This document shows, piece by piece, positions 11,067-24,315 of a DNA stretch of 64,000 bases (positions are counted from its first letter, which is position 1; each line of letters starts with the position of its first letter). Made by a program: the position numbers and the translations under genes. The stretch spans positions 87,274-151,273 of the forward strand of contig NZ_JAYRDA010000006.1 in the NCBI RefSeq assembly GCF_041909655.1, in the 5' to 3' direction. Origin of the DNA: Dongia sp. (GTDB lineage Bacteria; Pseudomonadota; Alphaproteobacteria; Dongiales; Dongiaceae). Under the pieces are notes generated by a model. That model had not been told where the DNA came from. It ran no database searches and saw only the letters and a list, made by a program, of their open reading frames with translations.

Positions 11067-11277
11067 GCGGTGACTCCTCGGAAGCGCGGCCGGATATTGG
11101 GGCGGGTTGGCAAGGGAATGTCCGGTTTCGGCGCATGACTGTCAATCGGGCCACATCGGGCGACATGCGCAAATGGACATCACGGCATGCGGCGCGGGCA
11201 TTTGACGCAGGTCGGGGCCTTCTGGGAGAGTGCCGCGCCGCCCGAGGTCAGTCATGCCCGGGCCTGCCGGGGGGTAT

Positions 11278-12198
11278 ATGGGTCGTTGGACGGGAATTGC
11301 GGGGCTGCTGCTGGCGGCTCTTTTCTGGGGCGGCATGATCCCACTGACCAAGTATCAATTGGAACGCTGGGATCCCTATTTCCTGGTCGCGGTGCGCTCG
11401 CTGGGGGCGGCACCCTTGCTGTTCCTGATGATGCTGTGGACCGACCGCAATCGCCCCGCGCCGGTACATGTTCCGGCTTCGAAGGTCTGGTTTTTCGGTG
11501 TCGTCGGCAATGGCGGCTTTGCCATCCTCTATACCGTGGGCGTGCAATTCAGCGATCCGATCCTGGCGGCAATCCTCACAGCCGCGGCGCCGGCCGTCGC
11601 CGCCGTGACCGACCGTGTCTTCTTCCGTCTGCCTTTCAACAAGCTGATGGTGCCCGGCATCATCGCCAGTGTTGTCGGCTGCGCGCTGGCCTCGATCGAT
11701 GGCAGCGGCGAGGGCGGCATCGCGTTTGGTGGCGGCGAGCTGCTGGTGCTTGCATCAACCGTGTGCTGGGCGTGGTACTCGACGGTGGCACAACGCTGGT
11801 GCCCGGACTGGTCGCAGGTGCGCATCACCTTCGCCACGATGGCGACGTCGGGGACGGCTATGTGCGTGATCTATGCCGTGCTGGCGCTGGGCGGCTGGGT
11901 TTCCTTCCCGCCGTCGCCGCCGGAAAGGTGGGAAGAGGCGTTCAGCCTCGGCTGGTATATCGTCACCGTGATGGTGCTGGGTGTCGTTCTATGGAATGCG
12001 GGCGTGCGCGCAGTCGGCGTCGTCACCGCCTCGCTCTATATCAACCTCACACCCTGCGTCGCCATCGTGATCCTGGTCATGTTGCAAGGCGCGCAGCCCA
12101 CCACCCAGCAATTGCTGGGTGGCGTCCTGGTTCTTGCCGGCATCGTCTATTCGGAATGGCGCATCCTGACGGCGAAACAGCCGGTCAGGTCCGTTTGA
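11278..12198 (+). CDS. DMT/EamA family transporter
   Basis: About 10 TM helices, LAALFWG start, SLYINLTP near the C-terminus. Start moved to ATG 11278. Confidence 0.85.
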   Translation: MGRWTGIAGLLLAALFWGGMIPLTKYQLERWDPYFLVAVRSLGAAPLLFLMMLWTDRNRPAPVHVPASKVWFFGVVGNGGFAILYTVGVQFSDPILAAILTAAAPAVAAVTDRVFFRLPFNKLMVPGIIASVVGCALASIDGSGEGGIAFGGGELLVLASTVCWAWYSTVAQRWCPDWSQVRITFATMATSGTAMCVIYAVLALGGWVSFPPSPPERWEEAFSLGWYIVTVMVLGVVLWNAGVRAVGVVTASLYINLTPCVAIVILVMLQGAQPTTQQLLGGVLVLAGIVYSEWRILTAKQPVRSV

Positions 12199-13177
12199 AC
12201 TTTCCTGCCGCCTTCCGCTTGGCCAGCAGGCAGATGAGGTCGCAGGCGAGATGGGCGGCGGCGAGGGCCGTGATCTGGCTCTGATCGAAAGGCGGGGCCA
12301 CCTCGACCACATCCATGCCGACCAGATCGAGTTCGGTGAAGCCGCGCACGATTTCCAGCGCCTGCGCACTGGAGAGACCGCCCGAGACCGGCGTGCCGGT
12401 GCCGGGTGCGAAGGCCGGGTCCAGGCAATCGATGTCGAAGGTGAAATAGGCCGGGTGATCGCCGACGATGCGGTTCACTTCCTTGATCACCGCCTGCGGT
12501 CCGTTGGCATGCACCCATTGCGCATCGAGGATGTTGATGCCCATGAAGTCGTCGTTCCAGGTGCGGATGCCGATCTGCACCGAACGCTTGGGATCGATGA
12601 GGCCGTCCTTTACCGCCTTGTAGAACATGGTGCCGTGGTTGAGGGAATCAGGCGTATCGTCCGCCCAGGTGTCGCAATGGGCGTCGAAATGGATGAGCGA
12701 GAGCGGCTTGCCGAATTTTTCGACATGCGCCTTCAACAGCGGATAGGTGACGTAATGGTCGCCGCCGAAGGTCAACATGCGCGCACCCGATTTCAGGATA
12801 TGGCGTGCATGATCGACGATGGCGTCGTGGATCGTCATCGGGTTGTGGACGTCGAGATAACAATCGCCGAAATCGATCACGGCCAGATTCTCGAAGGGAT
12901 CGAAACCCCAGGGATAGGGTTTCAGCGAGGCCACTTCGGCGGAAGCCAGCCGGATGCCCTGCGGCCCAAGCCGCGCGCCGGGGCGATGCGTGGTGGCGAG
13001 ATCGAGCGGCACGCCGCTGATCACCAATTCCGCATTGGCGAGGTCCTTGCTGTAATTGCGGCGCATGAAAGAAAGCACGCCGGCGAAGGTGGGTTCGAGG
13101 GCGAGGCCGTAGGGTGATTTGCGCGCGATGGCGCCGTCGATCTTGATCTCGCTGTGGTCATGCTGGTCGGTGGCCAT
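12185..13177 (-). CDS. speB: Agmatinase (ureohydrolase family)
   Basis: GGDHYVTYP, HFDAHCD, FDIDCLDPAFAPGTGTP, DVVEVAP Mn-binding motifs. Confidence 0.88.
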   Translation of the reverse strand: MATDQHDHSEIKIDGAIARKSPYGLALEPTFAGVLSFMRRNYSKDLANAELVISGVPLDLATTHRPGARLGPQGIRLASAEVASLKPYPWGFDPFENLAVIDFGDCYLDVHNPMTIHDAIVDHARHILKSGARMLTFGGDHYVTYPLLKAHVEKFGKPLSLIHFDAHCDTWADDTPDSLNHGTMFYKAVKDGLIDPKRSVQIGIRTWNDDFMGINILDAQWVHANGPQAVIKEVNRIVGDHPAYFTFDIDCLDPAFAPGTGTPVSGGLSSAQALEIVRGFTELDLVGMDVVEVAPPFDQSQITALAAAHLACDLICLLAKRKAAGKFKRT

Positions 13178-13208
13178 GTTGATGTATTCCGTTCCTGGGT
13201 TTGCTCAT

Positions 13209-13334
13209 TTGGGGATCTCCCCCAATGGTCGCCTGGGATAGCTCGTCGAAAAGATGTCGGATTATCCGGGGCTCTCCCCCGATGGTCGGCTTTCAGCGCG
13301 TCTCAAACTTGCCGAGGCTCTCCCCCGGCTGGTC
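13209..13334 (-). promoter_or_regulatory. Three tandem GACCA-stem-GAGA(G/U)-stem hairpin repeats in the agmatinase 5' leader; candidate cis-regulatory RNA
   Basis: Plus-strand copies at 13209-13230, 13266-13287 and 13311-13334; conserved loop, covarying outer stems. Confidence 0.55.
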
Positions 13335-13457
13335 TCATGCTCGAAACAGTGTCGTTTGCTGCCGCGAACTTGACGAAGATAAGCAAGCTTTAGCAGAGTG
13401 TCGAGCCATTGTTTGCTGGCGGCCCGTTCCCACCTTCGCCCGGATTACTGCAAAATC

Positions 13458-14408
13458 ATGACCAAATGGATTGGCTATTTCGGCCTGCTGCTCCTGGCGC
13501 TGCTCTGGGGCACGATGGTACCTGCCGTGGCGCATCTCCTCCATATTTGGGATCCCTATTTCCTGGCAGCCTTCCGTTATGTGGGCGCCGTGCCGCTGAT
13601 GTGGGTGGCGCTTTCTCTGATCGACCGGCGCAAGGCACCGCCGGCATCGGGCGCCGCGGTTACGCGCCCGGGTTGGCGCATCTGGCCGCTGGGAATCATC
13701 GGTATCGGTATCTATTCGGCGCTCTATACGGTGGGCGTGCAGCATTGCCATCCGGTGACGGCGGCGATCCTCAGTGCCACCAGCCCGGCTGTCGCGGCGA
13801 TCGTCGATCTCGTCGTCTTCCGCGTGCCGCTCGATAAGCGCATGCTGCCCGCCATCCTGCTCGCCATCATCGGCGGTGCGCTGGCGACGGTGCATTTCGG
13901 GGCCGGCGACATGTTCGATTTCCGCGGCGGCGAGATCCTGATCGTGACCGCCTTCGCCTGCTGGTCCTGGTATTCGACGGCGGCCCAGCGCTGGTGCCGC
14001 GGCTGGAGCCAGTTGCGCATCACCACCACGACGATGACCACCGGCGGCGCCGGCCTCATTGTGATCTATCTGGTCGCGGCGGCCTTAGGTGCTGCTATCC
14101 TGCCGCCACCCATGGCGACCGATCCGGTTGATTGGCTGGTGCTCGCCTGGGTCACCGTCGTGCTGGTGGCCTTTGGCGTCTATCTGTGGAATTTCGGCGT
14201 GAAGCGCACCGGCGTGGTGGTGGCCAGCCTCTATCTCAATCTGGTGCCCGTGGTGGCGATTGGCATTTTTGCACTTTCCGGCACGCTGCCCACCTGGCCG
14301 CAGATTCTGGGGGGCGTGCTGGTGATCCTGGGCGTGCTAATGTCGGAACTGCAATTGCTGAAGGCGAAGAAAATGGATCCGGCGCTCAATGCCGCGCAGC
14401 CTTCCTGA
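13458..14408 (+). CDS. DMT/EamA family transporter, paralogue of 11278-12198
   Basis: Shares WDPYFL, WYSTxAQRWC, SLYxNLxP with the upstream DMT. Start ATG 13458. Confidence 0.85.
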   Translation: MTKWIGYFGLLLLALLWGTMVPAVAHLLHIWDPYFLAAFRYVGAVPLMWVALSLIDRRKAPPASGAAVTRPGWRIWPLGIIGIGIYSALYTVGVQHCHPVTAAILSATSPAVAAIVDLVVFRVPLDKRMLPAILLAIIGGALATVHFGAGDMFDFRGGEILIVTAFACWSWYSTAAQRWCRGWSQLRITTTTMTTGGAGLIVIYLVAAALGAAILPPPMATDPVDWLVLAWVTVVLVAFGVYLWNFGVKRTGVVVASLYLNLVPVVAIGIFALSGTLPTWPQILGGVLVILGVLMSELQLLKAKKMDPALNAAQPS

Positions 14409-14421
14409 ACGGAGGAAAATC

Positions 14422-14772
14422 ATGGCCGACGTGAAACACTACAAGCGTAGCGAAATGACATTCGAGACCTATGGCGGCCCGCCGGGCACGGCCGAGATCA
14501 GCCGCCTGGTGGGGCCTGACGTCTCGCATACGATGGGCGTCGGCCTTGCTAAATTCGACGGCTGCTCGATCGAATGGACCGTGCTCTATGACGAGATGAT
14601 CATCGTCATCGAAGGCTGGTTCCGCCTGAAGCATCCGGGCGGCGTCATCGAAGCCGGTCCCGGCGATGTGATCTGGCTCCCGGAAAAGACGCCGATCACC
14701 TATGAGGGCGAAAAGGCCATCGTCTGCTACGCGCTCTATCCGGTGGATTGGAAGAAGCGGCATAATTTGTGA
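14422..14772 (+). CDS. EutQ-like cupin
   Basis: WTVLYDEMIIVIEG, AGPGDVIWLP; strong GGAGG Shine-Dalgarno. Confidence 0.8.
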   Translation: MADVKHYKRSEMTFETYGGPPGTAEISRLVGPDVSHTMGVGLAKFDGCSIEWTVLYDEMIIVIEGWFRLKHPGGVIEAGPGDVIWLPEKTPITYEGEKAIVCYALYPVDWKKRHNL

Positions 14773-24169: not shown

Positions 24170-24179
24170 GCCTGCCGTT

Positions 24180-24265
24180 GTGACGCGGGGTGTCCGTTCT
24201 CGAAAGGGACGGGCTGAGATCATACCCGAAGAACCTGATCTGGATCATGCCAGCGAAGGGATCGT
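24180..24265 (+). ncRNA. TPP riboswitch aptamer
   Basis: GGGGTG..GCTGAGA..TACCC..GAACCTGATCTGGATCATGCCAGCGAAGG consensus, upstream of thiamine genes. Confidence 0.95.
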
Positions 24266-24315
24266 TGCACCGCCCGGCAAGCGGCTGATCTATTTCCCCT
24301 TGTCTGCTGGTGTTC

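Follow-up and report, generated by a model that had tools for sequence, protein, structure and literature searches.

A covarying array of GAGA-loop hairpins upstream of the agmatinase gene in a Dongia subclade: a candidate cis-regulatory RNA

Within the window, by which we mean the whole 64,000-nt stretch of Dongia DNA analyzed here, the region upstream of the agmatinase gene speB carries three short hairpins, each preceded by GACCA and closed by a GAGA-type loop. The question that this locus raises is whether the hairpins are a feature of the speB mRNA and, if they are, what reads them. In our best reading, the monocistronic speB mRNA carries them in its 5' leader as a lineage-specific cis-regulatory array of RNA stem-loops. 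Below, we describe the locus and the distribution of the hairpin units, analyze their pairing and covariation, and weigh the candidate readers of the array.

The speB locus and its three hairpin units

The speB product scores 464 bits against the NCBIfam agmatinase model NF002564, whose cut-off is 302 bits. Among solved structures it is closest to the Burkholderia agmatinase 4dz4 (537 bits) and then to E. coli SpeB, and it is clearly more distant from guanidinobutyrase and guanidinopropionase. speB is monocistronic: a second EamA gene converges on its 3' end, and the first EamA-family transporter gene diverges from it across a common intergenic region of 280 bp (Table 1). The setting is a chromosomal amino-acid catabolism neighborhood, and the gene order FGase, M20, EutQ, EamA <> speB, EamA, DAO recurs in two further loci (L118 and L119). 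According to Pfam, none of the neighboring genes adjoining speB encodes an RNA-binding domain.

Table 1. Coordinates of the features around speB, in positions of the window
Feature	Position	Strand	Description
Second EamA gene	11230-12198	plus	convergent on the speB 3' end
speB	12185..13177	minus	agmatinase, 330 aa; Pfam Arginase (4e-89); NCBIfam NF002564
CCCAGG box 2	13192..13199	minus	holds the Shine-Dalgarno-like AGGAA; 15 nt before ATG 13177
Unit 3	13209..13230	minus	GACCA 13230-13226; stem TTGGGG/CCCCAA; loop GAGAT 13219-13215
CCCAGG box 1	13232..13237	minus	directly 5' of unit 3; CCYAGG in orthologues; conserved in leaders
Unit 2	13266..13287	minus	GACCA 13287-13283; stem TCGGGG/CCCCGG; loop GAGAG
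Unit 1	13311..13334	minus	GACCA 13334-13330; stem GCCGGGG/CCTCGGC; loop GAGAG 13322-13318
speB promoter-like site	13376..13404	minus	-35 TCGACA 13404-13399; spacer 17 nt; -10 TATCTT 13381-13376
First EamA-family transporter gene	13458..14408	plus	Pfam EamA; start codon read from sequence

The units lie 32-157 nt 5' of the speB ATG (13177), at 13334-13209 of the minus strand, where a sequence-only reading of this locus had placed them and with the sequences that it gave. Each consists of a single-stranded GACC(A), a stem of 6-7 bp clamped by G-C pairs and a GAGAN loop. The stem of unit 1 has 7 bp with one G.U, that of unit 2 has 6 bp with an outer U.G, and that of unit 3, the start-codon-proximal and most widely kept of the three, has 6 bp; folded alone, the single hairpins come out at free energies between -8.4 and -14 kcal/mol. 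The core pattern matches twice in the window, against 0.02 matches expected. The sequence-only reading had proposed building a covariance model from the units. Our model, R1, was built from orthologous units, and in the 64-kb window it recovered the three copies at 34-44 bits (34.2, 38.4 and 43.8 bits for units 1, 2 and 3) and nothing else, the next best score being 12.5 bits. An upstream open reading frame of 11 codons (13338-13303, minus strand; ATG AGA CCA GCC GGG GGA GAG CCT CGG CAA GTT TGA) overlaps unit 1; it is not conserved and is absent in the orthologous leaders, and a leader peptide was rejected on this ground.

Regex and structure-aware scans found no further copy of the unit in the 4.58-Mb genome (62.5% G+C). 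Hairpins with GAGAN loops are as frequent in the genome as hairpins with control loops (346 versus 179-463), and the combination of GACC with a GGG/CCC-clamped stem is absent from all the others. With no copy beyond the speB locus, the unit is not a dispersed repeat, and the generic genome-wide copies that the earlier reading had reckoned with as a counter-indication were not seen. A cmscan of positions 12000-14500 against 4227 Rfam families gave no relevant match at E values up to 10, in keeping with the earlier reading, which could not match the motif to guanidine-I to IV, glycine, SAM-alpha or cuckoo motifs; the matches at this permissive setting were four, all at chance level and all to unrelated families. 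At gathering thresholds, the Rfam search of the whole window returned nothing but a TPP riboswitch elsewhere (RF00059, 65 bits, 24176-24279, plus strand). In the literature that we searched for RNA motifs linked to agmatinase or agmatine, no counterpart turned up.

A consensus scan located a sigma-70-like promoter site upstream of the units, from which a transcription start near 13369 and a leader of ~190 nt are predicted; given this position of the site, all units would fall within the predicted speB leader. A block GCTCGACACT..AAAGCTTGCTTA..TCGTCA is nearly invariant across 13 orthologous leaders, in which T1, A2 and T6 of the -10 hexamer are also kept. A sigma-54 promoter was considered and rejected, its GG/GC spacing being one off and not conserved.

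The speB promoter region as a whole (13370-13412, minus strand) is near-invariant in 13 species, its 17-nt spacer included (GCTCGACACT..AAAGCTTGCTTA, with an AAGCTT palindrome). That a spacer is conserved points to an operator which overlaps the promoter and which the divergent EamA gene possibly shares, and a DNA-binding regulator thus probably acts at the speB-EamA locus.

Closer to the start codon, RNAalifold pairs CCCAGG box 1 with box 2, enclosing unit 3; since the paired positions never vary, covariation is uninformative about this helix either way. For the ribosome-binding region, folding predicts an intermediate accessibility (mean unpaired probabilities of 0.28-0.65 across orthologues), and no consistent predicted sequestration of the ribosome-binding site was found among them. 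Neither a terminator nor a U-tract was found 3' of the hairpins on the minus strand, for which reason an attenuator was rejected. Two other arrangements were tried and discarded: an alternative pairing between the units and the CCCAGG boxes, because a change in the 5' arm of unit 2 is matched in the 3' arm of that unit and not in the boxes, and a K-turn-like extension, because the GACCA/RYGA arrangement occurs at unit 3 only and has unpaired bases on both strands.

Two orthologous leaders, L007 and L013, carry a 16-17 nt insertion (GGATTTCCCCAGGAGC) with a second ribosome-binding site in the last 40 nt before the ATG. The insertion brings a UUUCCCC that complements GGGGAGA in unit 3, and as this alternative pairing wins in the minimum-free-energy fold, the two leaders may have a genuine switchable structure.

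Distribution of the units

We scanned 185,579 species genomes for the two-unit tandem pattern and found six loci, all in Dongia or Dongia-like MAGs and all upstream of a speB orthologue. The only two-hairpin match outside Dongia (L037, 5864-6183) is a 54-nt tandem repeat in a long open frame and was dismissed as coincidental; the contig on which it lies is full of tandem repeats. Viral contigs gave no match to the two-hairpin pattern. Sixty relatives were examined: speB was present in 23 of 23 genomes of the genus, and the units occurred only in speB orthologues with at least 87% amino-acid identity. One of 80 metagenomic agmatinase loci, at 88% identity, carried the motif. Nine exact-protein look-ups added 14 loci (L118-L131), from which 12 leaders were read and eight joined the model search. 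Cultured species are represented, with proteins named Dongia mobilis and Dongia rigui falling in the same clusters and L128 coming from a D. rigui assembly.

The number of units per leader varies from zero to three, and the spacing between units from 31 to 72 nt. Three units were found in the window and in L002, L118, L122, L125, L129, L130 and L131; two in L003, L004-L008, L011, L012, L038, L119 and L128; and one in L013. Unit 1 is confined to the branch made up of the three-unit loci and L003. Extra copies of (A)CGACC that lack a hairpin were seen upstream of unit 2 in four leaders (L008, L012, L038 and L129). They are short tandem duplications, with, for example, CAATGACGACC repeated two or three times, and they indicate that the GACC box multiplies independently of the stem-loop.

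In a maximum-likelihood tree of SpeB, the array-bearing loci fall in one clade with a support of 97/97. Within the clade, two Dongia loci have lost the array (L009 and L010), and a low-G+C branch nested there also lacks it. This branch consists of Nitrosomonas-type agmatinases (L039, L040, L048; P0008-P0058) of ~81-86% identity; among named homologues, Nitrosomonas agmatinases come closest (~84% identity). The nesting suggests a horizontal transfer of speB without its leader. As L009, L010 and the Nitrosomonas branch have no hairpins, the array is dispensable.

The sister Dongia clade (L014-L021 and L047; SpeB identity 75-78%) has no GAGA units. Its leaders have a conserved sequence of their own, AAACTATAGCATCCGGCC.CGATCGTCCCGG-loop-CCGGG, ~30-90 nt upstream of speB, and the hairpin in it has compensatory variants, among them CCCGGA/TCCGGG and CCCGGG/CCCGGG.

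Pairing, covariation and strand

The model search aligned 47 units, 37 of them distinct, from 20 leaders of the Dongia subclade. Standard pairs make up 98.2% of the cells in the six scored stem pairs of the 37 distinct units; the alignment was fitted to the model, so that the pairing counts lean slightly to structure, and a hand-made ungapped alignment (A1) agrees. Changes on both sides were seen in three of the six pairs (34 cells; C-G/U-A, U-A/C-G and G-C/A-U). The orthologous stems of unit 2 include CTGGGG/CCCCAG, CCGGGG/CCCTGG and CCGGGG/CTCCGG, and an ortholog of unit 3 has the stem TTAGGG/CCCTAA, a compensatory change from G-C to A-U. None of 500 column shuffles reached the observed pairing or covariation score, and sliding the 3' partner by one column brought the pairing down to 68-71%.

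Against these changing outer pairs, all 37 units share the same GACC, the same three inner G-C pairs and, in the loop, the same A2, G3 and A4. Loop position G1 is kept in 36, which have GAGAN loops, the exception being a single AAGAC; at position 5, G, C and U occur but A does not. The contrast between a conserved loop and GACC and outer pairs that change together, first noticed in the three copies of the window, is thus a property of the 37 distinct units. Between the two deep branches, the units are 77-85% identical and the linkers 47% (30-47% when the spacer is included). Between the same branches, the spacer from the ribosome-binding site to the ATG is 30% identical and the first 20 coding bases 43%.

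This pattern bears on a rival account of the hairpins, a constitutive structural element with no regulated partner. Such an element could stabilize the mRNA, for instance by blocking 5'-end-dependent decay, or it could insulate and organize the leader and so keep the weak ribosome-binding site open. The high stability of the hairpins, their flexible copy number and the loss of the array in close relatives are all consistent with it, as is the position of unit 1 in L118, L122 and L125, where it begins a few bases after the predicted start and would be protective of the mRNA. What the account leaves unexplained is the invariance of GACC, of the loop AGA and of the inner G-C pairs across 37 units whose outer pairs covary, and it offers no reason for loop position 5 never being A. 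We regard the structural element as unlikely in either form.

The deviations from standard pairing are informative about the strand. Over the six scored pairs, G.U or U.G on the speB sense strand accounts for 12 cells and non-standard combinations for four; among the latter, the L122/L125 lineage has a C.A in unit 2, and L003 has one as well. The window has two non-Watson-Crick pairs, both of them G.U on the speB sense strand, in line with the earlier remark that its non-canonical pairs are G-U on the minus strand only. The unit is also asymmetric, with GACC on one side only and GAGA at its center. In L130 (947-976), the 3' arm of unit 3 has a single C-to-G change that moves the hairpin into another register and turns its GAGAC pentaloop into a GAGA tetraloop; the shifted stem is a perfect 6 bp. 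The retention of GAGA through the register shift marks it as the constrained core of the loop, and the absorption of the shift by pairing is sensible for RNA folding but not for a DNA half-site.

An alternative at the DNA level has to be judged against these observations: the units would be operators of the divergent EamA-speB control region, and a transcription factor would bind them as imperfect GGGG-N5-CCCC palindromes. The units do lie within the 280-bp divergent intergenic region, their GGG/CCC half-sites are invariant and the nearby promoter spacer is unusually conserved. They are, however, placed downstream of the speB start as predicted, at +35 to +160, with the EamA start a long way off, and covariation of the outer positions is needless for a protein that reads base identity. 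Moreover, the deviations are mostly G.U on one strand, center (GAGA) and flank (GACC) are asymmetric, and the register shift of L130 keeps the RNA pairing. We consider the operator explanation highly improbable. The G.U pairs on the sense strand, the asymmetry of the unit, the promoter-like site upstream and the L130 variant together lead us to treat the units as structure of the speB mRNA.

The array fits the generic class of cis-regulatory structured mRNA leaders: it is a conserved, covarying structure on the sense strand of one gene family, between the promoter-like site and the ATG. Judged by the comparative sequence evidence, the hairpins are a real and selectively maintained RNA-level feature of the speB leader. 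The motif is a conserved covarying RNA motif absent from Rfam and from the literature searched, and it is associated with one gene in one Dongia subclade.

Candidate readers of the array and likeness to known systems

The reading that we prefer, and hold tentatively, is a protein-bound hairpin array that sets the translation or the stability of the speB mRNA. Every unit of ~27 nt would offer the same surface, made up of GACC, the G-C-clamped stem and the GAGA loop with a free base that is never A. A single sequence-specific partner acting in trans would read all copies, most likely an RNA-binding protein that binds several of them, and the occupancy of the array would set ribosome access, mRNA lifetime or both. 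GACC and GAGA have persisted in paralogous copies whose outer stems have drifted, which argues for the same sequence-specific reader and against a generic hairpin; and as the hairpins are stable alone, their stems would be fixed platforms and not switching helices. A copy number of zero to three and variable spacing fit additive binding sites. The start-proximal unit 3 would weigh most, since it lies between the two CCCAGG boxes, the second of which holds the ribosome-binding site.

The nature of the partner, its signal and the direction of regulation are the parts of the protein-bound reading that we infer, and its output step is weakly grounded because the sequestration of the ribosome-binding site is inconsistent among orthologues. 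To suppose a protein dedicated to one mRNA within so narrow a clade is, in addition, unparsimonious. Hfq is present in the genome.

Reading by another RNA was also weighed. A small RNA with UCUCCC-type, anti-Shine-Dalgarno-like loops, or the 3' end of the 16S rRNA, could pair with GGGGAGA. The GGGGAG of the units is Shine-Dalgarno-like, and alphaproteobacterial sRNA families with C/U-rich loops exist; the UUUCCCC insert of L007 and L013, described above, offers a complement to the same stretch. Against such pairing, the stem takes up most of the G run and leaves only four to five loop bases free, and the invariant GACC is unexplained. A search of the genome for a partner sRNA found clustered TCTCCCC motifs only at the antisense of the locus and in REP-like repeats. 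We think a trans-acting RNA very unlikely to be what the array is for.

A small-molecule sensor is the third candidate for reading the array at the RNA level. The array would then be a new riboswitch class that tunes speB translation, with agmatine, another guanidino compound, putrescine or a metal ion as its ligand, and the metabolite would be bound by the single hairpin together with its GACC tail, or else by two or three hairpins docked to one another. Several features would suit this: loop and tail are very strictly conserved in sequence, the element acts in cis on a single gene with no regulator gene alongside, and the G-rich stems beside a GNRA-type loop could conceivably provide sites for loop-helix docking. 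SpeB acts on a guanidino compound, and tiny tandem-hairpin guanidine sensors exist (PMC5486947). The loops cannot pair with each other, however, the number of copies varies from one to three, with L013 having a single unit, and the hairpins are stable without a ligand. There is no conserved alternative structure or terminator that could form an expression platform, no similarity to the riboswitches of Rfam, and the distribution is very narrow. Both forms of the sensor appear quite unlikely to us. A more specific version is a minimal riboswitch class in which GAGA hairpins with their 5' GACC bind agmatine or a related guanidino or polyamine compound and switch on speB, whose product would break that compound down, the loops possibly docking onto the G-C-rich stems of neighboring units; this, too, we find doubtful, and if anything more so. 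Our search of the agmatine and agmatinase literature found no natural RNA that senses agmatine, and we know of none. In proposing a multivalent protein-binding or ligand-sensing element, the sequence-only reading had identified the right class of explanation, while making no choice between protein and ligand.

Provided that the array is regulatory, 27-nt units with 13 invariant positions and one nearly so make up a compact RNA module that controls an enzyme of polyamine/guanidino metabolism, and the module is undescribed in the sources checked. Because the motif occurs in cultured Dongia species, pull-down or a screen of ligands could identify the partner, which would prove to be either an RNA-binding protein with a new specificity, for GNRA-like loops, or the ligand of a small riboswitch of a new kind. 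The leaders with one to three copies lend themselves well, as a natural series, to the study of dose effects when RNA sites are repeated; the narrow distribution of the motif limits its general importance.

Among known systems, the guanidine-II riboswitch (mini-ykkC, RF01068) shares with the array the tandem, near-identical GC-rich hairpins, the four-nucleotide loop core, the variable linkers and the location in the leader of a gene of guanidino-compound metabolism. Its loops are ACGR, however, whereas those of the array are GAGAN and cannot form the loop-loop C-G pairing for the guanidine pocket, and its hairpins come as a fixed pair, whereas the array has one to three copies and an invariant 5' GACC. 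The RF01068 covariance model gave no match at E values up to 10. Docking of the guanidine-II kind, which had been offered as an example of how the array might work, fails because the GAGA loops are neither self-complementary nor ACGR, and it also sits poorly with the variable copy number and with hairpins that are stable alone.

REP sequences, the repeats of the REP/RAYT system, resemble the unit in having a short conserved 5' motif directly before an imperfect palindrome. They differ in their number, which runs from tens to hundreds, and in lying for the most part between convergent genes, whereas the unit is found at one orthologous locus and in a leader.

The sites of CsrA/RsmA are likewise multiple purine motifs presented by hairpins near the ribosome-binding site and variable in number. 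In these sites, though, GGA is central in the loop, whereas here it straddles stem and loop, and one CsrA site usually overlaps the Shine-Dalgarno sequence. A tblastn search with E. coli CsrA found no csrA gene here, its one match (E 0.14) lying inside an unrelated frame, although a very divergent homologue is possible.

The ANTAR target RNAs of EutV, NasR and AmiR also have at least two adjacent small hairpins with conserved loop positions in nitrogen-catabolic leaders (PMC3369931). These targets are protein-bound, with hexaloops marked by A1 and G4 and with a terminator as the competitor of the second hairpin (PMC3369931). The units of the array have pentaloops instead, and the minus strand has no terminator.

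The boxB hairpins in the nut sites of phages lambda and P22, bound by the arginine-rich N peptide, have a short stem and a purine-rich pentaloop able to adopt a GNRA fold, and a conserved single-stranded box lies upstream, boxA in the phages and GACC in the array. The phage loops are GAAGA or GACAA, in contrast to GAGA+N, and the position of the extra base differs. The array is moreover chromosomal and tied to a single gene, with no terminator downstream on which antitermination could act and no match in viral contigs, and we know of no N-like protein in Dongia. By its sequence, GAGA with one extra nucleotide is compatible with a GNRA-type loop and may adopt a GNRA-like fold, and the L130 variant is a plain GAGA tetraloop. 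GNRA-like pentaloops with one base looped out are a recurrent device of protein recognition, as in the complex of boxB with the N peptide (PMC12550061).
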